64,000 nt of DNA from Candidatus Saccharimonadales bacterium (GCA_046350615.1 JAXMAA010000002.1:21204-85203); one strand, 5' to 3'. Positions 8,076 to 41,006 are shown, counted from the stretch's first letter. Notes: generated by a model not told the origin, from the sequence alone. Made by a program: numbers and translations.

Positions 8076-10823
8076 ATGGTAAAACGTCTTAGCACAAAGT
8101 GCGATCACAACATCAGTACGAAACAAACGAAAAAAGGCACATCTTTGGAGCCTGATGAGACGAAGATAGATTTATCGAGCATTAACAAGCCTGATGTGAA
8201 GGGAAAAGAATCACCAAAGTTCAAAATTTCTCTTTCAAATCCGTTCAAAAAACAAGACCGTAAGCGAGATAGGCAGGGTAGATTCGCAGCTATTGGATCT
8301 GGTGGCCTGCGTTCACTACGTGGTATTAATTTGAAACGAACTCTGCCAGTTATTATTGTCGTCTCATTGGTAGGCGGGTTTTTGGTATACCAAAGTTTCG
8401 CCGCCTCAAGTGCGAGTAAGAGTGAGGTTACCGAGTGGTATCGTACCTGTTTGAATCGCGAGCCAGACTCCGGTGGACTTGATTATTGGGCTGACCAACT
8501 TGATAAAAATCCGAATGCAACATGGTCAATCGCCGATAAATTTATGAAAACAGCGAAAGTTACAAGCTGTAATTACGCAAATACACCTAAAAACACCACC
8601 AGTACAACTACTACTATACAACAGCCCGCCTCAACATCAAATTCCTCTAGTTCGTCATCTTCGTCTTCATCATCGAGCACGGGTTCGAGCTCTTCAACGG
8701 CGGCAACTAAGGTTTCTTGCTCTGCCAAAGAGATGAGTGGCAAGTATGTGCTTCAGTGGACTACCGTCACCACTCAGTGGCTCTGGAAGGTGCGCATCGC
8801 AGAAAAAGATGGCTCGGTACTGGCTCGTGATTTGGAGTTGAATCGTGATGATAAATCAAATCCGTCTAGTTGGCCTGTCCCCTATCAAAAGAGTACGAAA
8901 ACGTATAGAATAAGCGTGTATAACCCAGAGAATGGGCCAGACTCGAAAGAACAGGCTGCGGCAGAATGTACGGTAACGGTAAAAGAGGATCAACCTACAT
9001 CAACAAACGCTAGCTCTAGCTCAAATACTAAACCAGTTGAACAGGTAAACGAAGCCGATAAGGCGTGGCTTATTACCCAGTATCAAGAGATTTTGGGGCG
9101 ATCTCCAAGCAAGATTGATCCAGCAGGATTTCAATACTGGCTTAATCGTCTGAAAACCGAATCACGTGATTCAGTAAAAAAAGCACTTGCTAATACGGCC
9201 GAAGCAAAAAAATGGGCAGCACTTAATCAACAGGCTGGTTCTAGCAATAACTCTTCGAGCTCTTCATCGAGTCAGTCCAGCGGCCAAACCAGTCAGAATA
9301 CTGGTGGCAGCACTGGATCGAGTGTTGTAAATACTGACCCGGCAAATTCGGAAGATGAGGCATGGCTTCGAACCCAATACCACGAGTTGCTCTGTCGCCC
9401 AGACGATAAAATTACCCAGAATGATCTTAAATACTGGCTCGATAGACTCAGTAAAAAAGAATCACGTGATTCAGTAAAAAAAGCACTTGCAAGCACGTCG
9501 GAAGCTATTCGTTGCGCAGATTCAAAAAGCCCTGCAACCGATGAGACGTGGGTGAGGGCGCAGTACTATGATGTACTTTGTCGGCCACTGAACAAAATTG
9601 ATTCAGATGGCTTTAAATACTGGCTCGATAGATTAAAAACTGAATCACGTAGCTCTGTAAAGCAAGCAATGTTGAATACGGCAGAAGGGAAGAAGTGTGC
9701 CGAGTCAAAGAACCCTGCTAGCTCTTCCCAGTCGCAATCTCAATCACAATCCCAACAGTCTGAACAAAATACTGAACCGAACCCACATGTTTGCACATCT
9801 CCATATCCAACGCTCAAGCGCAACGACAAAAACACCTCTGCGGCTCGAAAAGACGAGTGTGTTTCAGCGGTGCAGTATAACCTCAAGAAAGGCGCAAACG
9901 ACCTTTCAGTGACGGGCACGGTTGATGATAAGACCGTGAGTGCGATTCAAAACTTCCAGAAGTTCTTTCAGCTTTCAGTAACTGGCACGCTGACCCCACA
10001 GCAGGTAGAGAGTATCGCTACTATTTGGGGTCCATATGCGAGCACAGAGGAAGATGAAGAGGCGAATACCCGAGTGAGTGGCGAGGGTAAGCTTGATATT
10101 GTATTCATGGGCGATGGCGTAAGTGACGATGCGGTGGAAAGTGCTGCATCGCGACTTGGTCCGGCTTTGTATAATTTTCCGCCGTATTCTCAGTATAAGG
10201 ATAGAATCGCTATTCATACCATTACTGAAAAGCCAGACTGTACCGACACACCGGTCGATACGTTAGATGGTCCATATAATTCGGTAAGTTGTGATGTGGC
10301 TCAGGCAGCAACAGCAAGCGGCGTCCCAGCAGATAAAGTGGTGATTATCTCAAGCAGCGTCGGGAGGGAGCATGCGGGCGGAAGTAGCATGTCTATATCT
10401 CCTTCGACATCCACTTCAACATTTTTGCACGAGATGGGACATGTAATGGGATTGGCTGATGAATATCATGGATACAGTGATGGGCAGTGGGGTGAGTACT
10501 CTCTCACGACGTACGGTCAGTGCATTACGGCGACAGAATCAAGCGATACTAATATGTTCTTTGATGGTGGTTGGAAGGACGTCGAAGGCCCGTGGTCTGC
10601 TTGGGCTAATCTTGGAGGCGTTGATTGGAATCGTGAATGTAGTGATACAAGGTGGTTAAGACCTTCAGCGGATAGTATTATGCGCAGTGGCTACGGGTTC
10701 TATAACTCTGTCTCCGAATTTATCGTAAAGAACGAACTTGATCGGGTTACGACTGGTACTGAGAGTACTTTGCCTGGTTACGGTAACACGGGGAGTGACG
10801 CTGGCGGAATATTTTCAAAGTAG
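8076..10823 (+). CDS. secreted multidomain protein: 4x DUF4214, Ser-rich linkers, PG-binding-like domain, C-terminal M64-like zinc metallopeptidase
   Basis: 915 aa with a signal anchor. DUF4214 units have the form W(L/V)xxQYxxxLxRxxxxxDxxGxxYWLxRL. A PGB-like unit is ECVSAVQYNL..TGTLTPQQV. The HEXXH motif HEMGHVMGLADEY matches the M64 (IgA-peptidase-like) signature HEfGHsfggLaDEY. Confidence 0.65.
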   Translation: MVKRLSTKCDHNISTKQTKKGTSLEPDETKIDLSSINKPDVKGKESPKFKISLSNPFKKQDRKRDRQGRFAAIGSGGLRSLRGINLKRTLPVIIVVSLVGGFLVYQSFAASSASKSEVTEWYRTCLNREPDSGGLDYWADQLDKNPNATWSIADKFMKTAKVTSCNYANTPKNTTSTTTTIQQPASTSNSSSSSSSSSSSSTGSSSSTAATKVSCSAKEMSGKYVLQWTTVTTQWLWKVRIAEKDGSVLARDLELNRDDKSNPSSWPVPYQKSTKTYRISVYNPENGPDSKEQAAAECTVTVKEDQPTSTNASSSSNTKPVEQVNEADKAWLITQYQEILGRSPSKIDPAGFQYWLNRLKTESRDSVKKALANTAEAKKWAALNQQAGSSNNSSSSSSSQSSGQTSQNTGGSTGSSVVNTDPANSEDEAWLRTQYHELLCRPDDKITQNDLKYWLDRLSKKESRDSVKKALASTSEAIRCADSKSPATDETWVRAQYYDVLCRPLNKIDSDGFKYWLDRLKTESRSSVKQAMLNTAEGKKCAESKNPASSSQSQSQSQSQQSEQNTEPNPHVCTSPYPTLKRNDKNTSAARKDECVSAVQYNLKKGANDLSVTGTVDDKTVSAIQNFQKFFQLSVTGTLTPQQVESIATIWGPYASTEEDEEANTRVSGEGKLDIVFMGDGVSDDAVESAASRLGPALYNFPPYSQYKDRIAIHTITEKPDCTDTPVDTLDGPYNSVSCDVAQAATASGVPADKVVIISSSVGREHAGGSSMSISPSTSTSTFLHEMGHVMGLADEYHGYSDGQWGEYSLTTYGQCITATESSDTNMFFDGGWKDVEGPWSAWANLGGVDWNRECSDTRWLRPSADSIMRSGYGFYNSVSEFIVKNELDRVTTGTESTLPGYGNTGSDAGGIFSK

Positions 10824-10826
10824 GAG

Positions 10827-11390
10827 ATGAATATGACACGTAAAAAAGTAGTTATACTAACAGGAACGCTCATAGTACTTACGTGTGCGGTGGTTGCAAC
10901 TGTTCTTCTCTACAATAAGCACAAGAACGATCCCGAAGATACAGCCTACAAAAATCTACAAACAGTTACAATTCCTGATGATGCCAACAAAACGCAGAAG
11001 GTGCTCCTCTTTACTTTTGAAGTAGGTAATTCTGTTGATTCGATGCAGCTAAAATCTATCGATCAATATAATTCGCATGCAGATATTCCTAACACGAGAG
11101 AGAACCAGTACAACTTTAGCGTGACTGAAGAAGGTAACCCAGTATACTTAAGCTATTTTGATATCCCAATTACAACTGTTGAGGATTTCTCAGAACAAGG
11201 AAAAATTAAAACAGTTGACATTGTCAAAGAGAAGAAACTAGCCTTTAAAACCCCGAGATTTACTGATGGGGCGGTGTTTACGATACGGAATAAAACAGGC
11301 AAGGTGTTGGTGCGTGACACCATTAAAAACGTGGCTACTCACGAAAATAAAACTCAGTTCAATACGCTTATTGCCGACCCGCGTTTGTAA
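10827..11390 (+). CDS. hypothetical membrane-anchored protein
   Basis: 187 aa with an N-terminal TM helix. It starts 4 nt after the stop of the peptidase gene, so it is probably co-transcribed. Confidence 0.5.
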   Translation: MNMTRKKVVILTGTLIVLTCAVVATVLLYNKHKNDPEDTAYKNLQTVTIPDDANKTQKVLLFTFEVGNSVDSMQLKSIDQYNSHADIPNTRENQYNFSVTEEGNPVYLSYFDIPITTVEDFSEQGKIKTVDIVKEKKLAFKTPRFTDGAVFTIRNKTGKVLVRDTIKNVATHENKTQFNTLIADPRL

Positions 11391-11554
11391 AACTATTCTC
11401 CACTATTCTTTTTACGAGAGTAGCGGTACGCTACTATACTCATTGCAAGCACGGAGACTGCTATGCAGATAACAGTGAGCTTTGTTGAAAGAGTATGAAC
11501 TGGGGTGTGATGTGCGAATAGTTGTATCATAACAATCAGTATACATCGAGACAC

Positions 11555-11581
11555 AAAAAGAGGTCAAAAAGACCTCTTTTT
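11555..11581. terminator. bidirectional intrinsic terminator
   Basis: AAAAAGAGGTC aaaaa GACCTCTTTTT lies between convergent genes. Confidence 0.75.
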
Positions 11582-11599
11582 GTATGAATAGTATTTAAA

Positions 11600-11914
11600 C
11601 TACCATTCGCGCTGACGGAATGAGCCGCCATTGCCGCCGCCGTTGAAATCACGACGAGGGCGATCCTCTTGAGGACGAGCTTCGTTAACCGTAAGTGTAC
11701 GGCCACCAAGATCAGATCCATTGAGGGCTTTTTCAGCTGCTTTACCTTCATCTTCGTTCTCAAATTCTACAAAGCCGAAGCCCTTAGAACGTTGAGTTTC
11801 ACGATCGGTAATAACACGAGCTGACGCAACCGTACCATGAGCAGCAAAAAGCTGTTCAAGTTCTTCACTGGTTGTGGAGAATGGTAGGCCGCCTACGAAA
11901 AGTCGATATGCCAT
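11600..11914 (-). CDS. RNA-binding protein (single RRM)
   Basis: RNP-2 LFVGGL, RNP-1 KGFGFVEF, and a Gly/Arg-rich tail. Confidence 0.9.
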   Translation of the reverse strand: MAYRLFVGGLPFSTTSEELEQLFAAHGTVASARVITDRETQRSKGFGFVEFENEDEGKAAEKALNGSDLGGRTLTVNEARPQEDRPRRDFNGGGNGGSFRQREW

Positions 11915-12063
11915 TTAGTGTATGTATCCTTTGTTTAACTACTGCAGTTCGACCATGTAACGTAACTAAGGTGCTGATGTAACCAACGAACCATACACGT
12001 ACTGACTGCTGAGCCTCAGTATAAAACAATTCAAATATTTTTGCGAGCATAAGCTCTTTGATT

Positions 12064-13455
12064 TCAAGAGTTTGACTTAGCAAGCTGTAGGCAGGCAACG
12101 CGAATCGTCTCTGACCACGATGGAAAGACATGAACGGTGCGCGCAAGCTGCGAGGCGCTCAGGTAGGTGCTCACAGCTAGGCTTAGTTGTTGAATAAGCT
12201 CGCTGGCATGCGGACTTACAATAGTTCCGCCCAGTATCACATCACTTTTTGGGTCAGCCAGTATTTTCACAAACCCATCACTAAAGTTAGCAATATTTGC
12301 CTTAGAAATAACCGAAAGCGGAACACCGACACTTTTATACGAAATGCCCTGTGCTTTGAGTACCGCTTCAGTTGGTCCAACAGCAGCAATTTCTGGCTGT
12401 ACAAAATAGGCTCGTGGTACAATGCGATCCTCAAACATAAGCCGTCGCCGAGGATGGAGTAAGTTATAGGCCACCAACTGGCTCTGGTATGTAGCTATAT
12501 GAGTAAAAGCAGTGCCAACGCAGCCACCGGCAGCATATATGTGCTGCGCACTTGTTTGCAAGAATGAGTTAGTGCGTATCTTCTCAGATTGATACTCAAC
12601 ACCGGCATTTTCAAGCCCGATATCGGTAACTGCTTGATGCGCCGTGGCAATGAGCAGTTCGTCTACTACAAGCGTTGTCTCCTTGCCTTTCTGCGAGATC
12701 TGCAGCCGTTTAGTTGCCCCAATGGCAATGATTTTAGTTGGGGTTGTCTCGAGATGAATATCTACCGAATACTGATTCGCAAGCGAGGCGCTTAGAGCTT
12801 CGGATACTTCAGGCTCTTCATGTGCAAGCAATCTTGCGGCACTCTCAATAAAATAGACCTTCGTTCCAAATGTGCCAAAGAGCTCCGCTAGTTCGTAGCT
12901 TAAAGGACTACCGCCAAGAATAGCGAGACGCTTTGGTGGCCGAGTGAGTGCAAGTGCTTCTCGGGTAGTAAGATACCCAGCAGTCGCTAAGCCAGGAATA
13001 TCTGGTATCTGTTGCTCAGATCCAGTGGCAATTAAAAATTTATCTGCACTCAGACGAGCTTTCCCAATTGTAACCATGTGCGGATCAATAAAGTGCGCTC
13101 GCCCATAAGTAAGCGTGATGCCCATGGCGCTTAAAGAATCGACCGCTCTTGGCAATCCCGCTCTACGAATTACTGTATCCTTCCATGCTTTAACGGTAGG
13201 ATAATTGTACCCAACTGTGGTGCCGCGAATACCAAACGTATCGCTATTGCGTGCTATACGGTACGCAGTTGCGGCCTCCAGAAGGGCACTCGTTGGTAAT
13301 CGTCCGCTTCTTGCATCGCTGCCCCCAAACTCTTCAGCCTCGATTATCGCTACTTTTTTACCCACTTTCGCGAGTTGCTGGGCAGCAATAATACCGCCGG
13401 CACCACTCCCGATGACAATCAGATCATAATCGTACGAAGCCATATTGGTCCTCAT
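12064..13455 (-). CDS. class I pyridine nucleotide-disulfide oxidoreductase homolog (dihydrolipoyl dehydrogenase-like) lacking the redox CXXXXC
   Basis: FAD site DLIVIGSGAGG and NAD site LAILGGSPLSYELA are present. The C-terminal dimerisation region has H..E (HVFPSWSE). The expected GGTCLNxGCIPSK reads GGSDARSGRLPTS. ATG 13443 is an alternative start. Confidence 0.7.
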   Translation of the reverse strand: MRTNMASYDYDLIVIGSGAGGIIAAQQLAKVGKKVAIIEAEEFGGSDARSGRLPTSALLEAATAYRIARNSDTFGIRGTTVGYNYPTVKAWKDTVIRRAGLPRAVDSLSAMGITLTYGRAHFIDPHMVTIGKARLSADKFLIATGSEQQIPDIPGLATAGYLTTREALALTRPPKRLAILGGSPLSYELAELFGTFGTKVYFIESAARLLAHEEPEVSEALSASLANQYSVDIHLETTPTKIIAIGATKRLQISQKGKETTLVVDELLIATAHQAVTDIGLENAGVEYQSEKIRTNSFLQTSAQHIYAAGGCVGTAFTHIATYQSQLVAYNLLHPRRRLMFEDRIVPRAYFVQPEIAAVGPTEAVLKAQGISYKSVGVPLSVISKANIANFSDGFVKILADPKSDVILGGTIVSPHASELIQQLSLAVSTYLSASQLARTVHVFPSWSETIRVACLQLAKSNS

Positions 13456-16401: not shown

Positions 16402-16893
16402 ATGGGTGAAGTTGTTCAGTTTCCTGATAGACCAATCAGGGGTGGTATGCCAGATACGGAGTTATTTAGGGAGACGGTATTCCAACAGCAACGTGATGCC
16501 GAGATTGCGGCTCGTGCGCGGACTACATGCCGACAGCCGACTTTGGCTGAGAGTCAAGCTGCTAAGAAAGAGCTTGATTTCATTTTTGGTGGTGAGAATG
16601 CCGCTGTGGCCAACCAGATGTATCTGCAGGGTAAAGATGATGTGGTGCATTCGAGGCGTAAGGTCGTGGACCGGATGGTTTCATTTGTATTTACCGATGG
16701 GTTCACTGTGTACCATCACGAAATCTCTGCAACTGGCGGGTATACTGACGCAGCAACATTCTATGCTTATGTAGAACACCTCACCGCTACGGCCGCAGTA
16801 ATGTATGATCGACCGTCTGGATATGTGAATGAGGCTCGATACGGAAGACTTGACGATAACTCCGTGGCGACTGGCGAGGTGGATCATGACTAG
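16402..16893 (+). CDS. hypothetical protein, translationally coupled to pyrB
   Basis: The start was moved to ATG 16402, which has a strong SD (AAAGGAGG). It is 163 aa and its end overlaps the pyrB start by 8 nt. Confidence 0.5.
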   Translation: MGEVVQFPDRPIRGGMPDTELFRETVFQQQRDAEIAARARTTCRQPTLAESQAAKKELDFIFGGENAAVANQMYLQGKDDVVHSRRKVVDRMVSFVFTDGFTVYHHEISATGGYTDAATFYAYVEHLTATAAVMYDRPSGYVNEARYGRLDDNSVATGEVDHD

Positions 16894-17791
16894 AATTAGC
16901 CATATACTTTCATCCTCACAGTTTTTGGAGCCAGCATTTGTAGATGAGATTATTGAGTTGGCTCGAGCGTATAAAGCTGAGCCGCTTCGTAAAAAGCCGC
17001 TCACCGGTATGCGGGTCGCAACGTTGTTTTATGAACCAAGTACCAGAACAAGACTTTCTTTTGAGTCGGCTGCGGTTGCACTTGGTGCGGATGTTGTAAG
17101 TACCGAAAGCGCTGGCGTATACTCTTCAGCCGCCAAGGGTGAGACGCTGGAAGATACTATACGAACGGTGCAGGGCTATGTTGATGCTATCGTGCTTCGG
17201 TATTACGAAAAGGGCGGTGCAGAGCGTGCGGCTGCAGTCTCCGGTGTGCCAATTATTAATGCAGGTGATGGTCCCGGTGAGCATCCTACTCAAGCGCTCT
17301 TGGACCTTTTTACAATCAGAGAGCTTAAACAGGATGTCGATAGTTTAAAAATTGGTTTAGTCGGCGATCTTAAGAATGGGCGCACCGTTCACTCGCTTGC
17401 TGGTTTGCTCGGTAGTCTGCATCCTGCCATGAGAATTGTAGGCGTTGCTCCGCAATCACTACAGCTGCAGTCTGGGTATGCCCCGCATGGTCTTCAGCGT
17501 GCTACGTACCTAGAAGATGTTATAGGTGATCTAGACATTATTTATATGACGCGAATACAAAAAGAGCGCTTTAGCTCACCAGAAGAGTACGAGTCACTAA
17601 AAGATAGCTTCATTCTTGACGGTAATCTTATGAAACGAGCAAAAGCTTCAGCGATTGTTATGCACCCTTTGCCGCGAGTTGGTGAGATTGCAGCCGAAGT
17701 TGATGATGACACACGGGCGATTTACTTTCAACAGGCTCACAATGGCTTGTTTGTTCGGATGGCACTTCTTGAGCACGTGCTTACTCATTAA
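16886..17791 (+). CDS. pyrB: aspartate carbamoyltransferase catalytic subunit
   Basis: Motifs STRTRLSFE, HPTQALLD and HPLPR are present. The start was set at ATG 16886 (MTRISHILS..). Confidence 0.9.
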   Translation: MTRISHILSSSQFLEPAFVDEIIELARAYKAEPLRKKPLTGMRVATLFYEPSTRTRLSFESAAVALGADVVSTESAGVYSSAAKGETLEDTIRTVQGYVDAIVLRYYEKGGAERAAAVSGVPIINAGDGPGEHPTQALLDLFTIRELKQDVDSLKIGLVGDLKNGRTVHSLAGLLGSLHPAMRIVGVAPQSLQLQSGYAPHGLQRATYLEDVIGDLDIIYMTRIQKERFSSPEEYESLKDSFILDGNLMKRAKASAIVMHPLPRVGEIAAEVDDDTRAIYFQQAHNGLFVRMALLEHVLTH

Positions 17792-17818
17792 TCCCAGGAT
17801 GAGTTACAATGCCTGCAT

Positions 17819-18790
17819 ATGTGTGAAGAGTCAAGACAGTACGTTATCGCAGTGAGTGGTGGAGTGGATTCCGTGGTGCTACTTGATGCGCTAGTGCATA
17901 ACCGTCTTCATGAATTAACGAATCACGAATCACGAATCACGAATCACGAGCTCATTGTGGCACACTTTGACCATGGAATTCGACCAGATTCGGCTGAGGA
18001 TGCGGAGTGGGTGAGGGCCTTGGCTGCAGGCTACGGATTGGAGTATGTATCTGAACGAGTTGAGCTTGGCTTAGGCGCAAGCGAGTCGGCTGCTCGCCAG
18101 ATGCGCTATAATTTTTTGCGACAAACTTGCAAAAAGCATAATGCACTTTTAATAACTGCACATCACCAAGATGACGTTATTGAAACGATAATCATCAACC
18201 TGATTCGTGGGACTGGTTGGCGTGGTTTGGCGCCTATGGCTGTTAAGATCTCAGATCTTAGATCTCAGATCATAGATTCCCAATCACCAACCATTCTCCG
18301 GCCGCTGATTGGCGTGAGTAAGGCGCAGATTTTAGAGTATGCAAAGAAGTATCAATTACAGTGGCGAGAAGACAGTACCAATGCAAATGAAAAATATCTC
18401 AGAAATTATGTTCGACGTTCGTTATTACCAGCTGTGCATGCAAAAAACCCAGCCGCCAAGCAGCAGTTACTTGAGCTAAATGCAAATGTGGTGGGGTTAA
18501 GATATGAAATTGCGACAGAATTGCAAAAAATAATTGCTTACTATCAACTATCAACTATCAACTACCAACTACCAAGATACTTCCTCATTATGATTCCAGC
18601 TATGGTTGCCCAGGAGATTCTCTACCACATAATCGCAGAGCTTGTACCAGATTGGCACCCTGAGCGCCGAGCAATACTGGGAATGCTCCATTTTGTTAAA
18701 ACAGGACTACCGCGTAAAACATACCAACTTCATCGAAGCCTTGAAGTTTCGCTGACCGAAGGCCAAGTTTGGTTTAAAAAAGTGCCATAA
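17819..18790 (+). CDS. tilS: tRNA(Ile)-lysidine synthase
   Basis: A PP-loop SGGVDS lies at the N-terminus, with ..HFDHGIR.. and ..TAHHQDD.. motifs. The gene contains three heptamer-repeat tracts. Confidence 0.85.
   Translation: MCEESRQYVIAVSGGVDSVVLLDALVHNRLHELTNHESRITNHELIVAHFDHGIRPDSAEDAEWVRALAAGYGLEYVSERVELGLGASESAARQMRYNFLRQTCKKHNALLITAHHQDDVIETIIINLIRGTGWRGLAPMAVKISDLRSQIIDSQSPTILRPLIGVSKAQILEYAKKYQLQWREDSTNANEKYLRNYVRRSLLPAVHAKNPAAKQQLLELNANVVGLRYEIATELQKIIAYYQLSTINYQLPRYFLIMIPAMVAQEILYHIIAELVPDWHPERRAILGMLHFVKTGLPRKTYQLHRSLEVSLTEGQVWFKKVP
17918..17949 (+). repeat. heptanucleotide tandem repeat ACGAATC x4.5 inside tilS
   Basis: Read directly from the sequence. It encodes TNHESRITNHE. 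Confidence 0.9.
18247..18281 (+). repeat. heptanucleotide tandem repeat AGATCTC-like x5 inside tilS
   Basis: AGATCTC AGATCTT AGATCTC AGATCAT AGATTCC. Confidence 0.85.
18541..18575 (+). repeat. heptanucleotide tandem repeat CTATCAA x3 / CTACCAA x2 inside tilS
   Basis: Read directly from the sequence. It encodes YQLSTINYQLP. Confidence 0.9.
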
Positions 18791-18826
18791 TATGGTAGGG
18801 TTATAGGGTACCAAAAGGAGAAAATA

Positions 18827-20731
18827 GTGGATTCAAAAAGTTCTGGGAAGATGCCAAACAACAAGAAAAGCATGCTGAAAACCGTTGCCTTCGTTATTTT
18901 TATCGGGTTAGTTGGAGCCTTTTTCTGGGCAAGTTCAAGCCTGCAAGGGGCTGAATATAAAAAGAATGTACTCACCTACTCTGATTTTGTGAAGCAGATG
19001 AATGAGGAGAAGATAGAATCAACCATTAAAAGTGGCAGTACGCTAAAAGTAACACTTAAAGATGAGATTACTCGCACCGTTGATGGCAAAGAAGAAAAAG
19101 GCAAGAAGTTTGAAGTGCTCTATCCTGATGGAGTCGAGCTACCCGACGAACAAAAGCTCGATCCTGTGAAGGCGAATCTTAAGGCTGAATCACCATCTGA
19201 TACTGGCAGTATTGTTTGGGGCGCTGCTCAGTTGTTGGTGCCGGGGCTGCTCATTTTAGGGTTCTTCTTTTTCATGATGCGTCAAGCGCAGGGCCAAAAC
19301 AATCAGGCGATGAGCTTCGGTAAGAGCAAGGCTCGCATTGCCGGTAACGAAAAAACTAAAACAACCTTCAAGGATATCGCCGGGAATGAAGAGGCAAAAC
19401 AAGATCTCGAAGAGGTGGTGGAGTTTCTAAAATACCCCAAAAAGTTTGAAGCCGTCGGGGCTAAAATTCCTAAAGGCGTGTTGTTAGTGGGTAGCCCTGG
19501 TACTGGTAAGACGCTGATGGCAAAAGCGGTGGCAGGCGAAGCTGGTGTGCCATTCTTCTCAATCTCTGGTTCTGAGTTTGTCGAGATGTTTGTTGGCGTT
19601 GGTGCTTCACGTGTTCGAGACCTTTTTGTAAAAGCAAAAAAGAATGCACCATGCATCATCTTTATTGATGAAATTGATGCAGTTGGTCGGCGTCGTGGTT
19701 CTGGTATGGGTGGCGGGCATGATGAGCGCGAACAAACCTTGAACCAAATTTTGGTAGAGATGGATGGCTTTGAAACCGGCGTAAACGTCATTGTGTTGGC
19801 AGCCACAAACCGAGCAGATGTGCTTGATCCGGCGCTTCTTCGACCGGGCCGCTTTGATCGCCGTGTAAACATTCCATTGCCGGAGCGGAAAGATCGTGAG
19901 GCTATTCTGAACGTTCATTTTAAAAACAAGCCGCTTGATAAATCGGTTGATTTAAATGCGCTTTCTAAAAAAACGACTGGTATGGCAGGGGCTGATTTGG
20001 CTAACCTGGCGAACGAATCGGCAATTATCGCTGCTCGAAGTGACCGAAAAGTAATTCAAAATTCTGATATTGTTGAGGCGTTTGAACGTGTAGCGATTGG
20101 TCCTGAGCGCAAAAATAAAGTGATGACCGAAAAAGACCGAGAGATGACAGCTTATCATGAAGGTGGACACGCCTTAACCGGTTTTACACTGCCAAATTCG
20201 GGTGGTTTACACAAAGTTACCATTATTCCACGTGGTGGCACGGGCGGTGTTACTTGGTTCTTGGACGAAGAAGATAAAAGCTACCATTCAATTAACGAGT
20301 TCAAAGATGTGTTGGTGCGCATTGTAGGCGGTCGTATAGCAGAAAAAGTGATATATGGTGATGATTGGGTAACGACTGGCGCCGGTAATGATCTTCAGAA
20401 AGCAACACAGTTGGCCCGCGAGATGGTAATTGAGCAAGGGATGGGCAAGCAGCTGCGTGATCAAGTGTTCCACGAAGATGAAGGTGGCATGATGCTAGAC
20501 CGCATGGTGCACTCAAAGCCATATTCTGAAAAGACAGCTGAACTCATTGACCAAGAGGTAGAAAACTTAATCAGGGAGGCGACTACCCGAGCTGAAAAGA
20601 TTATTCGCAGCAATCTACCTGCTCTTGAAAGTATCAAGAAAGCATTACTTGAAAAGGAAACGCTCGATGAAGAAGAGGCACGTGCTTCACTTGCTGGTGC
20701 AACGGCACCATCAGAAACTGTGCTTAAGTAG
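18827..20731 (+). CDS. ftsH: ATP-dependent zinc metalloprotease FtsH
   Basis: Walker A GSPGTGKT, Walker B IIFIDEID, the SRH region, and zinc motif HEGGHAL. A GTG start with SD AAGGAG 6 nt upstream. Confidence 0.95.
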
Positions 20732-20782
20732 TTTAATTGCACCTAATTTATTCTCTTATTGTGGACCTGCTCGTCGTCTGCT

Positions 20783-20810
20783 GTCATTCCAGACTTGATC
20801 CAAGATCCAG
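20783..20810 (+). repeat. GTCATYC...GRATC repeat copy (degenerate stem)
   Basis: GTCATTCCAGACTTGATCCAAGATCCAG. Confidence 0.55.
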
Positions 20811-20873
20811 TTATTATTAATCACTGGCGATATAGCTATATTTTTACCCCTCTAATGCGTATACTTAGCAGTA

Positions 20874-22466
20874 ATGGTCAAACAATTTTTAGTGCGAGCG
20901 AATCAGAAGGTTAGTTTTGGCTGGGCGGCAGCTTTGCTGGCCGGCTCAAGCATGATTGCTCAGGCGTTAGGGCTTCTGAGGGACCGTTTTCTATACGGTA
21001 GTTTTGGTTTAGAAAGTTCACAGGTAGCCGCCTTTAAAGCGGCTTTTACAGTGCCGGACTTCATGTTTTTTTTACTGATTTCTGGAGCACTGAGCGTTAC
21101 TTTTATTCCGATTTTTAACGAACGCTACATTAAAGGTAATAAAAAATCAGCCTGGGAGCTGAGCTCCAGTCTGCTTAACATGTTTGCCGTGCTAACCTTT
21201 TTTACTAGTATCTTGATACTCATATTTGCTGAACCGTTAGTGAAGTATGTTGTGGCGCCAGGGCTTGATGAGCATACAACTTTTTTGGCGGTTTCAATGA
21301 TGCGTATCATTGCGGTCAATCCATTGCTGTTCTCAATTAGCTCTGTTTTTGCAGCGATGCAGCAGGCCGTGGGGCGGTTCTTTTTTGTGAGCTTGGCACC
21401 GTCCTTTTATAATCTGAGCACTATTTTCGGCATTGTCTTTCTAGCGCCAAAATTTGGGATTATGGGTGTAGCGTTTGGTGTGGTGATTGGCTCAGTGGCT
21501 CAGCTGCTTGTTGGGGTGTTGGGTCTGGCAGGTTTTGGTTTTGACTATCAAGCAAAAATTTTTTGGAAGAACTTAGGCTTCCGTCGGCTACTTAAAATTC
21601 TGCCGGCTCGTTCGGCCGACCAAGGCATGGATTACTTCAATAATATAGTTGAGGTTAATTTGGCATCACGTCTCGGTACGGGTGCAATCGGTAATTTTAG
21701 TGCGGCTTATACCCTGCATAATGTGCCAATTACGCTTATTGGAGTGGCACTCTCTACGGCCGCCTTTCCTCGCATGACCGAACGGCTGGCACAGAACCGG
21801 CCAGATCTTTTCAAGAAGGAGCTAGCTGGTCTGCTTCGTCTTGTTATTTGGTTCTCGTTGCCTGCAATTACCATTACATTCCTGATGAGAGGCTATTTAA
21901 TTCGTCTTTCTGCTGGCGATGGCTACGCAACAGCAGCAGCGATTCTCGGTATTTTTGCGTGGGCCGTGTTGTTTCGAGCGCTGTATCACGTGCTTTCCCG
22001 GAGTTTTTATGCCCAGCAAGATACTCGTACGCCGCTCTACGTTTCAATCTTTGCAATCTCACTCAACGTGGTTCTTGCAATTTTACTTGCCCGACCAAGT
22101 GCTTACGGCATTATTGGCCTTCCACTTGCTCAAGTGATTGTCTCAATCGCTGAAGTGGCAATTTTGCTCGTTATTTTGTTCCGACGATTCCCGGGCTTCC
22201 TCGGCCGCGTTTTTGTTGGAGCACTCTGGCGTATGCTCTCGGCTTTTGGTATCACCTTTTGGGTAACCTGGATTTTGCGCCGTGAACTCTTTGAACTTGG
22301 TGCACAAGATCGCGGTTTCCTGACCGTTGTGCCAAAACTGGGGCTACTCTGTACTATCGTACTCCTGCTTTACGTGGTCATCTCGTGGCTCTTCCGGCTA
22401 GAAGAAGTCGAACCAATCATTGCCAAAGTCCGCACCATACTATTTAAACCCATCCGCCTGCAGTAG
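20874..22466 (+). CDS. murJ: lipid II flippase MurJ
   Basis: 530 aa with about 14 TM helices and MviN/MurJ-type N-terminal motifs (..GLLRDRFLYGSFG..). A TATACT box lies 8 nt upstream of the ATG. Confidence 0.85.
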   Translation: MVKQFLVRANQKVSFGWAAALLAGSSMIAQALGLLRDRFLYGSFGLESSQVAAFKAAFTVPDFMFFLLISGALSVTFIPIFNERYIKGNKKSAWELSSSLLNMFAVLTFFTSILILIFAEPLVKYVVAPGLDEHTTFLAVSMMRIIAVNPLLFSISSVFAAMQQAVGRFFFVSLAPSFYNLSTIFGIVFLAPKFGIMGVAFGVVIGSVAQLLVGVLGLAGFGFDYQAKIFWKNLGFRRLLKILPARSADQGMDYFNNIVEVNLASRLGTGAIGNFSAAYTLHNVPITLIGVALSTAAFPRMTERLAQNRPDLFKKELAGLLRLVIWFSLPAITITFLMRGYLIRLSAGDGYATAAAILGIFAWAVLFRALYHVLSRSFYAQQDTRTPLYVSIFAISLNVVLAILLARPSAYGIIGLPLAQVIVSIAEVAILLVILFRRFPGFLGRVFVGALWRMLSAFGITFWVTWILRRELFELGAQDRGFLTVVPKLGLLCTIVLLLYVVISWLFRLEEVEPIIAKVRTILFKPIRLQ

Positions 22467-22520
22467 ATTGCAGATAACAGAAAATAGATAATAGAATCAC
22501 TGCACTACCGGTTTAATAGC

Positions 22521-22579
22521 CTGTTATCTATTTGCTACTATCTGTTATCTAAACTCCACCTCTGTTATACTGAACTACA
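22521..22579 (+). repeat. three CTGTTAT(C/A) extended -10-like units spaced 21 and 20 nt upstream of lepA
   Basis: The units start at 22521, 22542 and 22562. The last one (TGTTATACT) is the likely lepA -10 box. Confidence 0.6.
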
Positions 22580-24454
22580 ATGAATCAAGATCACATTCGA
22601 AACTTCTGCATTATCGCTCATATCGACCACGGTAAAAGTACGTTGGCAGATCGATTGCTTGAACTTACCGGAACTGTCCAGAAGCGCGACATGAAGGCGC
22701 AGCTGCTTGATAAGATGGATTTAGAGCGCGAAAAAGGTATCACCATTAAGCTGGCGCCAGTCAGAATGAACTACACACCTTCTGCAAGCACCAAATCACA
22801 AGCACCAAATGTTAAACAGATCCAAAACGCAAACAACCACAACTCAAAACACGACCAACTATCAACTACCAACTACCAACTTAATCTCATTGACACACCC
22901 GGCCACGTAGATTTCAGCTACGAAGTTTCGCGTAGTCTCGAGGCCTGCGAAGGTGCAATTTTAGTGGTTGATGCCAGCCAGGGCATTCAGGCGCAGACGC
23001 TGGCTAATGTGTACCTTGCTATGGCTGCGGATCTCAAGATTATTCCGGTACTCAATAAAATTGATCTACCGGCCGCCGATGTTCCACGCGTAACGGCGGA
23101 AGTAGTGAGTTTGTTGGGCTGCGATGAAGACGAGATTCTGCATATTTCAGCTAAAACCGGCGAGGGCGTGCCAGCGGTACTCGATGCAATTGTAGCACAA
23201 GTTGAACCCCCAAAAGGTGAGCCGAATCTTCCGGCGCGGGCACTCATTTTTGATAGCTACTACGATGATTATCGCGGCGTCATTTTGTATGTTCGTGTGG
23301 TTGATGGCTCTATTAAAAAGAGTAATGAAATGAAAATGATGAGTTCTACGGCGCACGGTCTGGCCTTAGAAATCGGGCACCTCAACCCCGCTATGAGTGC
23401 CGATGGCGAACTCAAAACCGGCGAGATCGGCTACATTGTTACTAATCTGAAGTCTACTCGCGAAGCCAAAGTTGGTGATACCGTAACCCTTACCACTAAT
23501 GCTGCAATAACTCCGTTGCCGGGCTATCAAGAGGTGAAGCCATTTGTCTATGCGGGTATTTTCCCGGAAAGCAACGAATACTACGCAGATTTGAAAGACG
23601 CCATAGAAAAACTAAGTCTGAGCGATTCTGCCTTGCAGTACGAGCCGGAAAACTCGCCAGTACTTGGGTTTGGCGTGCGCGTCGGCTTCTTGGGGTTGCT
23701 CCACATGGATATCGTGCGCGAAAGACTGGAGCGCGAATACAACCTAAGCCTAATTGTGACCAACCCGAGCACCGATTATCATGTCACACTACTAAATGGA
23801 GGACGGCTTGATAGTAAGTCGGCGAGTGATTTACCAGACCCCGCAAAAATTAAATCGATTGCCGAACCCTGGATCAAGGGTGAAATTGTCGTGCCAAAAG
23901 AATATGTTGGTGCGGTAATTCAACTGATTTCATCTAAACGCGGCGTGCAAAAGGGTCTCAGTTTTGTTGACGCGCAGCTTGCATTAGTGAGCTTTGATGC
24001 GCCACTTGCCAACTTACTAACTGATTTTTACGACCAGCTCAAAAGTGTTACCAGCGGCTACGGATCGTTTAACTATGAACTCAGCGATTATCGCGAGGAA
24101 GATCTAGTGCGGGTAGATTTTTATGTAGCTGGCGAGATTGTCGGGGCGCTCTCGGTGATGGCGCACCGCTCTGAAGCCGAAGCTTTAGGCCGCGATACTA
24201 CAACAAAACTCAAAGAGGTGATCCCGCGGCAAAACTTTAAAGTTGCGTTGCAAGCCGCCATCGGTGGGCGCTTTATTGCTCGCGAAGATATTTCGGCGTT
24301 TCGTAAAGATGTCACCAGCGGTCTCTACGGCGGTGATGTCTCACGAAAAAAGAAGGTGCTAGCCAAGCAGAAAAAGGGCAAAGAACGCCTAAAGCGCTTC
24401 GGCAAAGTGGATATCCCCGCCGAAGCCTTCACCGTCATGCTCAAGCGCGATTAA
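22580..24454 (+). CDS. lepA: translation elongation factor 4 (LepA)
   Basis: G-domain motifs AHIDHGKST, DTPGH and NKID, plus the LepA C-terminal domain. It carries a ~25-aa low-complexity insertion before DTPGH. Confidence 0.95.
   Translation: MNQDHIRNFCIIAHIDHGKSTLADRLLELTGTVQKRDMKAQLLDKMDLEREKGITIKLAPVRMNYTPSASTKSQAPNVKQIQNANNHNSKHDQLSTTNYQLNLIDTPGHVDFSYEVSRSLEACEGAILVVDASQGIQAQTLANVYLAMAADLKIIPVLNKIDLPAADVPRVTAEVVSLLGCDEDEILHISAKTGEGVPAVLDAIVAQVEPPKGEPNLPARALIFDSYYDDYRGVILYVRVVDGSIKKSNEMKMMSSTAHGLALEIGHLNPAMSADGELKTGEIGYIVTNLKSTREAKVGDTVTLTTNAAITPLPGYQEVKPFVYAGIFPESNEYYADLKDAIEKLSLSDSALQYEPENSPVLGFGVRVGFLGLLHMDIVRERLEREYNLSLIVTNPSTDYHVTLLNGGRLDSKSASDLPDPAKIKSIAEPWIKGEIVVPKEYVGAVIQLISSKRGVQKGLSFVDAQLALVSFDAPLANLLTDFYDQLKSVTSGYGSFNYELSDYREEDLVRVDFYVAGEIVGALSVMAHRSEAEALGRDTTTKLKEVIPRQNFKVALQAAIGGRFIAREDISAFRKDVTSGLYGGDVSRKKKVLAKQKKGKERLKRFGKVDIPAEAFTVMLKRD
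22856..22883 (+). repeat. heptanucleotide tandem repeat CAACTAT/CAACTAC x4 inside lepA
   Basis: 24 nt at 22856-22879 are identical to tilS 18552-18575. Confidence 0.9.
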
Positions 24455-24495
24455 GGTAAAGTCATAGATAGTCCTCAAATAGATAGGGGGAGTAC

Positions 24496-24518
24496 AGGTA
24501 CCCGAAGTGCCTATTTTT
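24496..24518 (+). terminator. lepA intrinsic terminator
   Basis: AGGTAC ccgaa GTGCCT followed by ATTTTT. Confidence 0.55.
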
Positions 24519-24525
24519 CCCACAC

Positions 24526-24573
24526 CGAGCAAAGCAATAAGTCAAGTATATCAATAAACATAAGCTTTGTCAA
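24526..24573 (-). repeat. 48-nt repeat carrying a consensus promoter (copy 1)
   Basis: It matches 36771-36818 at 46 of 48 positions. On the minus strand it reads TTGACA-17 nt-TATACT. Confidence 0.75.
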
Positions 24574-24604
24574 GGCACACTTGAATTACGAAATAGCCAC
24601 CCTT

Positions 24605-24657
24605 GTCATCCTGAGTACTCGATCGGGGTCGAGCATAAACTCCGCTGAAGGATCTAG
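24605..24657 (+). repeat. long GTCATCC...GGATC repeat copy
   Basis: GTCATCCTGAGTACTCGATCGGGGTCGAGCATAAACTCCGCTGAAGGATCTAG, with inner hairpin CTCGA/TCGAG. Confidence 0.7.
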
Positions 24658-24669
24658 TAACAGGCTAAC

Positions 24670-24737
24670 AGATCAACCAGGGTCTCTCCTCCTTTGCTGA
24701 AGCTACAGCGGACAGGTTGCATTTGGCCTCAGAAGAC
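24670..24737 (-). repeat. long repeat copy in inverted orientation (degenerate)
   Basis: AGATC...CCTTTGCTGAAGCTACAGCGGACAGG... is similar to 13952-13999. Confidence 0.5.
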
Positions 24738-24809
24738 GAAATCGATATAATACAGAGAGGACGGTCGTATCTCGTGATACGATGGTAGCTGATAATTTTG
24801 GAGGCATAC

Positions 24810-25445
24810 GTGGCTAAATTTTTACACAGTTCGCAAAGAAGGTGGCGCATTACCACTAAACATATTCTGAGGGTAGCTCTGATAATAATTCCTGTGGTAA
24901 TACTTCTTTCACAAGCAGAACGTTTCTTTACACAAGGGACGCTCTTTGGCTATCAGGTTCGTTCTGTCAAAACCAAGCAGCAGATTGCCCAACAAAATAA
25001 AAGTGGAGCCTTACTTAATGCTGAAAAGTCAGCAGAGAATCAAAAAAGTATAGCCTGCGACAAGTTTCCGGCAGCGAAGGTCAAACAAGCCATGGGTAGC
25101 GAAGTCGAACGCATATCGGGTTTTGTGGCTGACCGAACCGAGCCAACCGTTACCTCGACCTGTATCTACCGAACCAAAAATGGCGACCGTAACTCACAGT
25201 CGGTCCTTATCTTATATCGAGAGCTCAAGGATGAGACAGCAGCTAAGAAGACTCTTGATGCACTGAAACAGCCCAAAGACGGTGAAGATATAACTGGACT
25301 TGGCGATGCAGCCTACTTCAATACCCACGCAAATCAACTATCCGTACAAAAGGGCAAAGAGCTGTTTACTATTACCATACCAAACGCTAGCAAAGACAAA
25401 AAAAGCAAAGACGTTGCCATTGGCACGGCGAAGATTGCACTATAA
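24810..25445 (+). CDS. hypothetical membrane-anchored/secreted protein
   Basis: The start was set at GTG 24810, 5 nt after GGAGG. It is 211 aa with an N-terminal TM helix. Confidence 0.5.
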   Translation: MAKFLHSSQRRWRITTKHILRVALIIIPVVILLSQAERFFTQGTLFGYQVRSVKTKQQIAQQNKSGALLNAEKSAENQKSIACDKFPAAKVKQAMGSEVERISGFVADRTEPTVTSTCIYRTKNGDRNSQSVLILYRELKDETAAKKTLDALKQPKDGEDITGLGDAAYFNTHANQLSVQKGKELFTITIPNASKDKKSKDVAIGTAKIAL

Positions 25446-38974: not shown

Positions 38975-40924
38975 ATGGGCAAAATTATCGGAATTGACTT
39001 AGGAACAACTAACTCAGCAGTGGCCGTTATTCAGGCTGGTACGCCAGATATTATTACTAACGCGGAAGGTAATCGTACTACCCCAAGCGTTGTGGCGATT
39101 AAAAAAGATAAGAACGGAAAAGAAGAGCGTTTAGTGGGCGCAACGGCTAATCGTCAGCGCGTTACCAATCCTGAAAACACCATTTTCGGCGTAAAGCGCC
39201 TCATTGGCCGCAAGTATTCAGATAAAGAAGTCCAAAAAGATATTGATATCATGCCGTACAAAATTGTGAAAAAAGGCAATGGCGTTGGTGTAACCATGGC
39301 AGGTAAAGACTATACACCAGAAGAGGTTTCAGCTATGATTTTAAGTAAAATCAAAGCAGACGCTGAGGCTTTCTTGGGTGAAAAAGTGAACGAGGCCGTC
39401 ATTACCGTCCCCGCTTATTTTGACGACAGCCAACGTCAGGCCACCAAAGATGCCGGTAAAATTGCCGGTCTTGAGGTTAAGCGTATTATTAACGAACCAA
39501 CGGCAGCAGCTCTTGCCTACGGTCTTGATAAAAAAGCAAAAGACGAAACCGTTGTGGTGTTCGACCTTGGTGGTGGTACGTTTGATGTTTCGGTGCTTGA
39601 ACTTGGTGACGGCGTTTTTGAGGTGAAGTCCACTCACGGTGATACGCATCTTGGTGGCGAAGATTTTGATAACGCGATCGTAAATCACTTCTTAGACGAA
39701 ATTAAGAAGGAGCACAGTAAAGACCTGCGTGAAAACGCCATGGCGATGCAGCGGCTGAAGGAAGAGGCGGAGAAAGCCAAAAAGGAACTCTCAAGCGCTC
39801 AGACTGCTGAAATCAACTTACCATTCTTAGACCAAGGCGAAGATGGCCCAATCAATTTTGAATACACCCTTACTCGCGCCAAGCTTGAAGATCTAGTAAA
39901 AGACTTTATTGAACGGACAGCTAAACCGTGCGAACAAGCATTGAAAGACGCTAAAATTACTGCCAAAGATGTTGATGAAGTCATTTTGGTCGGCGGTATG
40001 ACGCGTATGCCGGCTGTCATAGAAAAAGTGAAGTCAATCTTCGGTAAAGAGCCGATGCAGGGTGTAAACCCAGATGAAGTTGTAGCAATTGGTGCAGCCA
40101 TTCAAGGCGGCGTATTGGCCGGTGATGTCAAAGATGTCTTGCTACTTGATGTTACGCCGCTTTCACTCGGTATTGAGACCATGGGATCGGTAACCACTAA
40201 GCTGATTGAGCGAAACACCACCATCCCAACCTCAAAAAGCGAAGTCTTCTCAACCGCTGCAGATAATCAGCCGCAGGTAGAAATTCACGTGCTACAGGGT
40301 GAGCGTGAAATGTCAGCCGATAACAAATCACTTGGTCGCTTTGTGCTGGATGGTATTGCGCCAGCGCCACGAGGCGTGCCGCAAATCGAAGTTACCTTTA
40401 ACCTCGATGCCAACGGTATTTTGAATGTAACCGCTAAAGATAAGGGCACTGGCAAAGAGCAATCCATCACTATTCAGAACTCCGGGAACCTCAGCAAAGA
40501 GGATGTCGAAAAAGCCCAAAAAGATGCCGAAGCTCATGCTGAAGAAGATAAAAAGAAGCGCGAAGCAGTAGAGGCTAAAAACTTACTCGAAAACTCCATT
40601 TATCAGGCTAAAAAGATGCCCGATGAGTACAAAGACAAGATCTCCGAAGATGACAAAAAAGTGATTGAAGATGCCGTGAAAGAGGCTGAAGAGGCCTTGC
40701 AGTCTGACGATAAAGAGAAGATTGAGGCAGCCACCAAAGAGCTGATGGAGAAAATTCAGCCAATCGGTGCCAAAATGTACGAAGAATCTGCAAAAGAGGC
40801 AGAAGCCGAAAAAGACAGCGAGGAAAAAAGTTCCAAGGGTAAAAAAACAAAAACAACCATTAAAGAAGACGAAGCAGTAGAAGGCGAAGTCATCGAAGAA
40901 GATAAGAAAGATAACAGCAAATAG
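38975..40924 (+). CDS. dnaK: molecular chaperone DnaK
   Basis: GIDLGTTNS and DLGGGTFD motifs. The start is at ATG 38975, after SD AAGGAG. Confidence 0.97.
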
Positions 40925-40945: not shown

Positions 40946-40972
40946 GTCATTCCCGCGCAGGCGGGAATCCAG
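40946..40972 (+). repeat. GTCATYC...GRATC repeat copy
   Basis: GTCATTCCCGCGCAGGCGGGAATCCAG, with 8-bp stem ATTCCCGC/GCGGGAAT. Confidence 0.75.
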
Positions 40973-41006
40973 TACAATAAAATCACCTAATTATATTGGA
41001 GGAGGG

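Follow-up and report, generated by a model that had tools for sequence, protein, structure and literature searches.

In-frame heptanucleotide tandem repeats within tilS and lepA of a Saccharibacteria genome and their recurrence across the clade

Introduction

Heptanucleotide repeats are reported to be the most abundant class of long simple sequence repeats (SSRs) in most bacterial genomes, and polymerase slippage has been proposed as their cause (Mrazek 2007, as cited in PMC4679880 and PMC4692102). This study concerns four tandem tracts of 7-nt units within two genes, tilS and lepA, of an uncultured Saccharibacteria (Saccharimonadales) metagenome-assembled genome (MAG). The tracts lie in a stretch of 64,000 nucleotides (GCA_046350615.1, JAXMAA010000002.1:21204-85203), referred to below as the window.

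Among described systems, neuO of the Escherichia coli K1 prophage CUS-3 resembles the tracts in that tandem 7-nt units (5'-AAGACTC-3') lie within an open reading frame (ORF), are translated in all three frames, and allow a full-length protein only if their copy number fits the frame, which in neuO means that it is divisible by 3 (PMC13001214). Strand slippage changes the copy number in neuO (PMC13001214) and would also have acted on the present tracts. The neuO repeat differs in having 3-53 units (20-21 being the commonest) at the 5' end of an accessory surface-modification gene (PMC13001214), whereas the tracts have 4-5 units and lie in the middle of housekeeping genes. It is also a true switch, being OFF in 66% of the complete K1 genomes that carry neuO (PMC13001214), while the tracts were always in frame and no OFF alleles were seen.

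Other heptanucleotide SSRs of bacteria include STRR of Calothrix and Nostoc, GGGAATC of Xanthomonas, and TAACTGA of Beggiatoaceae, cyanobacteria and Bacteroidetes (PMC4679880, PMC4692102). They share with the tracts a preference for period 7, unit families specific to a lineage, and lengths varying between close relatives; their arrays often occur as inverted pairs, and stop codons set the translatable orientation. TTATCAG, the rotated reverse complement of TAACTGA, matches the CTATCAA unit of the window at 5 of 7 positions. Families of the STRR and TAACTGA type have, however, been described as overwhelmingly intergenic, often directly upstream of start codons, where TAACTGA repeats have been proposed to regulate translation (PMC4679880), and non-triplet units reportedly are avoided in coding regions. 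In contrast, all four window tracts are inside ORFs, and the clade carries arrays at these intragenic sites. Rickettsia palindromic elements (RPEs) are likewise repetitive DNA read in frame in housekeeping genes at fold-compatible positions (PMC10969869), and hairpin-forming inserts similar to them occupy the LepA loop in other Saccharibacteria (L020, L078, L061 and L046). RPEs differ from the tracts as they are dispersed palindromes of about 100-150 bp with a conserved peptide, whereas the tracts are direct repeats of 28-36 nt that show no palindromy and are not dispersed in the 64 kb.

The over-representation of heptamer SSRs, the in-frame neuO switch and the in-frame RPEs are already described, and the statement in an initial annotation of this DNA that no described system resembles it was overstated. 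A search of the literature on heptanucleotide or tandem repeats together with Saccharibacteria or Patescibacteria returned nothing. Likewise, no description was found in the literature of non-triplet microsatellites persisting across a clade inside tilS and lepA, here accompanied by a documented three-unit step and by concerted evolution.

Results

The genes around the tracts are ordered pyrB, tilS, ftsH, murJ and lepA. The tilS ORF (17819-18790, + strand) encodes an intact tRNA(Ile)-lysidine synthetase of 323 aa with a PP-loop domain (Pfam PF01171, E=4e-48) that matches the solved TilS structures 1ni5, 1wy5 and 3a2k, and contains three of the heptamer tracts. The lepA (EF4) ORF (22580-24454, + strand; 624 aa; Pfam GTP_EFTU, EFG_C and LepA_C) is also intact. 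The initial annotation placed all four tracts in essential ORFs; tilS is essential, but lepA is dispensable in E. coli.

The first tract (17918-17949, + strand; tilS codons 34-44), at TilS site 1, was reported by Tandem Repeats Finder (TRF) as ACGAATC x4.6 with 100% matches and encodes TNHESRITNHE. The second, at TilS site 2 (18246-18281, + strand; codons 143-154), consists of the units AGATCTC, AGATCTT, AGATCTC, AGATCAT and AGATTCC and encodes ISDLRSQIIDS; TRF reported 18246-18277 as an AGATCTC-like unit x4.6 with 84-89% matches. At TilS site 3 (18540-18575, + strand; codons 241-252), three copies of CTATCAA are followed by two of CTACCAA, which together encode YQLSTINYQLP (TRF: ACTATCA x5.1, 96% matches). 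The fourth tract (22854-22881, + strand; lepA codons 92-101) is made up of CAACTAT, CAACTAC, CAACTAC and CAACTT. It is the 3' end of a longer LepA insert, where the period is still visible (TRF: ACCAACT x4.0, 90% matches), and it runs into native Tyr-Gln-Leu codons (TAC CAA CTT).

The presence of four in-frame 7-nt tracts, three in tilS and one in lepA, as recorded in the initial annotation, was thus confirmed by TRF and by the intact ORFs, and chance does not account for it: five period-7 rows, representing four arrays, were observed in the window and none across 100 triplet-shuffled windows. Among periods 4-15, perfect self-match runs of at least 10 occurred in the 64 kb at period 7 only, together with its multiple 14 in the same tract. 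All tracts have 4-5 units and are located mid-gene, and three of the four are imperfect. The four clear arrays of the window are all intragenic and comprise three different units, repeated head to tail over lengths greater than expected by chance, as is typical of SSRs. No extra copies of the heptamer units were found dispersed elsewhere in the window, which covers 64 kb of a contig of 347,752 nt. The periodicity of 7 nt rather than 21 nt, and the identity of the units of tract 1 over 32 nt, point to an origin at the DNA level.

On the coding strand, the main unit of each tract can be read through in all three frames without a stop codon, and a stop is present on the other strand; this accounts for the uniform orientation of the tracts. 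A given strand is stop-free in 69% of all heptamers, and this filter alone is therefore insufficient to account for the small number of unit families. At the RNA level, tract 3 was predicted to be wholly unstructured (minimum free energy of 0), as were CAACTAY segments. Fold z-scores of the tracts were +0.9, +0.5 and +0.3, and tract 2 was weakly self-complementary (z=-2.4). No inverted partners of the window tracts, whether as palindromes or as terminal inverted repeats, were found, and with neither partners nor folding, a hairpin or miniature inverted-repeat transposable element was rejected for these tracts. A search for known RNA families over 16500-25000 gave one sub-threshold chance match only.

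The positions of the tracts in the two proteins were mapped on AlphaFold 2 (AF2) models and compared with solved structures. In the TilS model, for which the mean predicted local distance difference test (pLDDT) score was 91, site 1 (residues 33-44) is coil between the helix at 16-26 and the strand at 45-51, site 2 (residues 141-158) is a disordered coil loop with a pLDDT of 55-63, and site 3 (residues 240-247) is a coil linker from the long helix 213-239 to the strand 248-252. The loops at sites 1 and 2 are shorter in E. coli and Aquifex. The LepA insert (residues 66-98; 22775-22873, + strand) is placed at the tip of the G-domain hairpin formed by beta2 (VRMNY) and beta3 (YQLNLI), between these two strands, and has no counterpart in Aquifex LepA (2ywe). 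Its 99 nt can be parsed throughout as degenerate NNNNCAA heptamers, near-perfect only in the last four, and a period-14 row was reported by TRF at 22786-22874. The insert replaces the two residues (K-D/E) of most relatives, a net gain of 31 aa. A low-complexity insertion at this position had been recognised previously; its size had been given as about 25 aa in place of some 8 canonical residues, and these figures are superseded. The insert is mostly coil with a pLDDT of about 27-42; the LepA model is of low confidence overall (pLDDT 59) and served only as evidence of disorder in the insert between beta2 and beta3. All four tracts are, on these models, located in loop or coil segments, which are predicted to be permissive sites.

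Recurrence of the tracts was examined in the 80 closest genome loci, nearly all of which are labelled Saccharibacteria, Saccharimonadales or Patescibacteria (a few carry the label 'bacterium' only, or that of another candidate phylum), and in 120 TilS homologs and the 120 closest LepA homologs. The window LepA is present verbatim in the protein collection searched, as P0121 (NCBI name 'MAG: translation elongation factor 4 [Candidatus Saccharimonadales bacterium]'), and apart from this entry only one close relative (94% identical) was found; a look-up of the exact P0121 protein gave no result. The window TilS is absent from the same collection of 5.8 billion proteins, in which no homolog exceeded 68% identity. 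Beyond the identical LepA, the species is unsampled. In the source annotation, tilS of the window may have been missed by gene calling or marked as a pseudogene.

Alignment of the orthologs showed that the sites are length-variable and that the LepA insert is without counterpart in most relatives. Among the 81 lepA genes of the window and the 80 loci, the hairpin tip has just two residues in 67; in the remaining 14 (13 loci and the window) the identical position is occupied by inserts of 5-63 aa that are dissimilar to one another. Similarly, 18 of the 120 closest LepA homologs have an insert at the hairpin tip and 102 have two residues. Period-7 repeats were detected within the LepA inserts of L002, L021, L046, L061, L063 and L271, and in L271 units of the AACTACC type independently adjoin the native YQL, as in the window. 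Several LepA-site inserts form hairpins, some with heptamer-periodic arms (DNA fold z of -5.8 in L020, -3.95 in L078, -3.1 in L061 and -2.2 in L046).

The length of the three TilS sites differs among more than 100 relatives, and the peptides encoded there mostly have a period of seven residues, such as NYQLPTTNYQL, TNHESRITNHE, ISDLRSQ and IKYQISNIKY. Residue autocorrelation peaked at lag 7 at the TilS sites (0.194, 0.131 and 0.157 in the 120 homologs) and in the LepA inserts (0.139), compared to about 0.04-0.11 at most other lags (one reached 0.135) and 0.063 at lag 7 in the rest of TilS; at site 3 the periodicity extended across 107 homologs. TilS inserts at the three sites persist down to about 45% identity, and many TilS orthologs have no insert.

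In 1.2 Mb of Saccharibacteria loci, period 7 was prominent among periods that are not multiples of 3, with 18 arrays, which were concentrated in a subset of the genomes. The unit families CAACTAC, CACGART and AGATCTC recur at TilS sites 1, 2 and 3 and in LepA in many genomes; CAACTAC-type arrays, for example, were present at TilS site 1 in L001, L014, P0001 and L270. A single CAACTAC cluster contained 11 of 25 arrays, and unit pairs with at most one mismatch made up 8.7%, compared to 3.0% for random heptamers. The similarity of units within genomes was marginally above that between genomes (permutation p=0.05). Arrays of [AC]GAG[TC][CT]A were found at three loci in L063, and long intergenic arrays occur in L034 (TAGCAAC x10) and L063 (AGAGTTA x10.9).

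Independent in-frame inserts of 28-63 aa at the LepA hairpin tip were also noted in L020 (10193-10324), L078, L072, L063 and L046. Those of L020 and L078 are near-complete palindromes resembling RPEs; the insert of L072 exceeded the length that could be folded. In L019 the LepA match spans about 2.57 kb (10001-12572) rather than the usual 1.78 kb or so. This suggests that a large insertion is present at another position in the gene, possibly an intein or an element of that kind.

The window was compared with its closest available relative, L270 (SRR14932633; LepA 94% identical), over the approximately 6.4 kb from tilS through ftsH and murJ to lepA. Coding indels occurred at the tracts only, with 21 nt more in the window at TilS site 2, 9 nt more at TilS site 3 and 57 nt more in the LepA insert; ftsH and murJ showed no coding indels. 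At site 2, the five units of the window compare with two (AGATCTC, AGATTCC) in P0001/L267 and in L270, with near-identical flanks. The difference is exactly 21 nt, that is, three whole units or seven residues, as expected of an SSR. It bears out the reasoning that only steps of three units are neutral, for which it is the one step observed. At this site about five decayed units are present in the outgroups P0002 and L001; the change in P0001 and L270 was therefore a contraction by three units. The candidate rule that all indels are steps of seven residues was rejected, as only some are.

At TilS site 1, P0002 carries ACGATTC x3.3 and the window ACGAATC x4.6. One substitution is common to every unit of P0002, which therefore indicates concerted evolution, another property of SSRs. 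Perfect arrays occur within genes whose flanks are just 60-75% identical. Every tract-bearing DNA copy of tilS or lepA that was examined (window, L001, L014, L267-L271 and the lepA loci) is read in frame, in what is a small sample supplemented by protein databases that are biased towards intact ORFs. The identity of tilS to L267/P0001 and L270 is mosaic: nt 200-300 of the coding sequence are 96-99% identical, and identity to L267 and L270 falls to 56-67% in the first 96 nt and in the 3' half. A ComEC competence gene is present in the window (52054-53505), and together with the mosaic identity it makes homologous recombination between lineages likely. An import of the site 1 unit family with a P0002-like segment was considered and rejected: with the 5' segment of tilS just 60-70% identical to every sampled relative, none of them could be singled out as the donor.

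A 24-mer, CAACTATCAACTACCAACTACCAA, is exactly shared by tilS (from 18552) and lepA (from 22856), with 0 such matches expected by chance. This identity had been noted by the initial annotation, and it stands; the accompanying claim of the same reading frame does not. The 24-mer starts at codon position 2 in tilS, where it reads (S)TINYQLP, and at codon position 1 in lepA, where it reads QLSTTNYQ, a frame shared only by a one-mismatch tilS copy at 18545. As a sign of recent transfer between the two genes the identity was rejected, since the frames differ and an identical T/C pattern in three units is sufficient to produce it. It is weak evidence of transfer because it needs only one T/C variant pattern within a single unit family. 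It is further weakened as heptamer arrays are widespread and CAACTAY is not special among them.

CAACTAY x3.4 was found in at least 120 metagenome contigs of 24-67% GC, with up to about 64 units, mostly outside long ORFs. The longest arrays of this type are in L084 (255-701), L082, L099 and L120, and many contigs end inside arrays. Elsewhere CAACTAY arrays are read in frame in genes, including a GT4 inter-domain linker, PheT, a glycogen debranching enzyme, a GH35 protein and an epimerase; the array in L109 (10099-11265) is exactly at the GT4 glycosyltransferase inter-domain linker, and that in L156 (3157-5106) is in PheT (phenylalanyl-tRNA synthetase beta). In viral contigs, CAACTAY was present at 22 loci compared to 12 and 11 for permuted control heptamers, at most a 2-fold difference. 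The notion of CAACTAY as a special universal unit was dropped, its permuted heptamers being only about 2-fold rarer.

Outside the coding tracts, a non-coding hairpin is present between murJ and lepA (22463-22559), with arms of AGATAAC/AGATAAT heptamer-like periodicity and a TRF period-7 row at 22465-22495; these arms are the only intergenic sequence of this periodicity in the window. Its inverted repeat of 31-33 nt is 76-81% complementary (RNA fold of -27 kcal/mol, z=-3.96). Its arms exceed those of L270 by 17 and 14 nt and have thus grown symmetrically. The hairpin is directly upstream of a conserved motif, CCTCTGTTATACTG, before lepA. The conserved TGTTATACT (22553-22582) is extended -10-like and is about 11 nt before the lepA ATG, which suggests, from sequence, that the lepA mRNA is leaderless or has a very short leader. 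In L063 a perfect (AGAGTTA)x10.9 (9900-10004) is located between the TGTTATACT motif and the GTG start codon of lepA.

Small palindromes were noted at other positions. The palindrome GTCATTCCCGCGCAGGCGGGAATCCAG (40946-40973) is just past the dnaK stop at 40924, a near-copy of it is in frame inside the LepA of L063 (..IRHSREGGNPV..), and related sequences occur in P0132 (VIPAKAGTQ) and L271 (VITAQAGIQ). Palindromes of this type appear to represent a small, translatable hairpin element with dispersed copies. The spacer between ftsH and murJ (20734-20836) has 103 nt without counterpart in L270; it contains GTCATTCCAGACTTGATCCAAGATCCAG, which resembles the GTCATTCCCGCGCAGGCGGGAATCCAG palindrome, and is probably a small inserted element. 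The 3' end of dnaK (40529-40908) has degenerate repeats of 27, 21 and 18 nt, which encode an acidic and lysine-rich low-complexity C-terminal tail of DnaK and are, unlike the heptamer tracts, compatible with triplets.

Discussion

The four tracts are probably heptanucleotide microsatellites that have been resized by slippage and kept in frame and stop-free in permissive loops. Strand slippage at replication or repair would create the arrays and change their length. A 7-nt unit shifts the frame by one base, and three units (21 nt) would pass through every frame once and lengthen the protein by seven residues. Acting as a purifying filter, selection on the two genes would pass only versions with a net length that is a multiple of 3, a unit that lacks stops in all three coding-strand frames, and a position in a loop or linker able to accommodate extra hydrophilic residues. 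Turnover would proceed by in-frame steps, those of three units included; repeated contraction and expansion would homogenise the arrays, point mutation would decay them into low-complexity inserts, and homologous recombination between related lineages probably moves the alleles. The repeats would then have no function of their own, and we assign no regulatory role to them. The earlier suggestion of tolerated junk in surface loops fits best, given the coil and loop segments in which the tracts are found and the variable length of these sites across the clade.

Several observations weigh against this interpretation. The birth of an array is left unexplained, as the first 7-nt duplication would shift the frame of the gene and simple slippage cannot add three units to a seed of one or two. 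The differences of 9 and 57 nt from L270 are not whole three-unit steps, and indels of 1, 3 and 8-18 aa between close relatives were also seen. The recurrence of CAACTAC, CACGART and AGATCTC across sites, genes and genomes is not predicted by purely local slippage, and at TilS site 1 two fairly close genomes have perfect arrays of unrelated units. Selection on the loops could also be the reason why arrays have been kept at three TilS sites in a streamlined genome and in a clade with identities down to about 45%.

The recurrence of units is what would be expected if permissive loops had received copies of arrays located at other places in the genome, by template switching, by gene conversion through microhomology (native TAC-CAA-CT, YQL), or by small palindromic elements with heptamer-repeat arms. 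The heptamer families of Saccharibacteria would then be selfish DNA, copied between loci, with a few of them colonising many tolerant loops in TilS, LepA and possibly other proteins, as RPEs do. We regard both this route and the selfish nature of the families as unlikely, although they would solve the birth problem. Three unit families are common to the TilS sites and LepA in many genomes, the CAACTAC cluster holds close to half of the arrays, L063 has related arrays at three loci, and the intergenic arrays of L034 and L063 are possible donors. The hairpin-forming inserts at the LepA site in four relatives, and the family-A arrays of the window and of L271, which adjoin the native YQL independently of each other, are also in agreement with copying. 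The window tracts, however, have no inverted partner, do not fold, and have units that are undispersed in the 64 kb; units are only marginally more similar within genomes than between them; and CAACTAY is at most 2-fold commoner than permuted heptamers in viral contigs, where arrays of any unit are common. The sharing of families among TilS sites may largely be due to common descent and homologous recombination, as the mosaic tilS indicates, and tilS and lepA read the exact 24-mer in different frames. The earlier proposal of a repeat that spreads between genes keeps a low probability: the 24-nt identity is weak evidence and CAACTAY is common in unrelated metagenome and viral contigs, but a few unit families do recur across sites and genomes. 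Less probable again is that the loops or repeats are themselves selected, for loop or linker length, for an unstructured G-poor mRNA, or as the site of a heptamer-binding protein, with slippage merely varying the sequence. The persistence of inserts at three TilS sites in more than 100 homologs, the lack of RNA structure in CAACTAY segments, the array directly upstream of the lepA start in L063, and the regulation proposed for TAACTGA repeats upstream of start codons (PMC4679880) would be in line with a function. Against this, many TilS orthologs and most close LepA homologs (102 of 120) have no insert, the sequence, length and unit family of inserts vary freely between close relatives, disorder is predicted for site 2 and the LepA insert, and no motif was found to be conserved.

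The initial annotation also put forward on/off switching of housekeeping genes by slippage. This would make the tracts contingency (phase-variation) loci of the neuO kind, in which tilS or lepA is turned off, and back on, as one or two units are gained or lost. The unit is not a multiple of 3, tract 1 is perfect, lepA is dispensable in E. coli, and the 57-nt lepA difference can be divided into 43 and 14 nt, neither of which is a multiple of 3; neuO itself, ON only at multiples of 3, demonstrates that such a switch exists (PMC13001214). The tracts are nevertheless short compared to neuO, mostly imperfect, and mid-gene rather than at the 5' end. With tilS essential, an OFF state would be lethal and not a phase. 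Every tract-bearing DNA copy examined is in frame, and the clean unit step is of exactly three units; switching is accordingly very improbable. The chance that the arrays are an artefact of assembly or sequencing is negligible. Repeats do break assemblies, the contig of L270 ends inside the site 1 array and several metagenome contigs end in arrays, but arrays are present at identical sites, in intact ORFs, in many independent assemblies from different projects. Slippage within permissive loops remains the preferred explanation.

As every slip in a non-triplet repeat shifts the frame, essential genes would be expected to lose such repeats, and yet a whole clade of ultra-small bacteria has kept 7-nt microsatellites in tilS and lepA. 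On the practical side, the tracts can confuse gene callers and assemblers, and contigs break in them. These genes offer a natural system for measuring the frameshift hazard that a streamlined genome tolerates, for following the growth of protein loops in quanta of seven residues read in three frames, and for asking whether repeats move between genes. If the families do spread as selfish DNA, they would constitute a microsatellite-based analogue of the Rickettsia palindromic elements, with a built-in three-unit frame rule.

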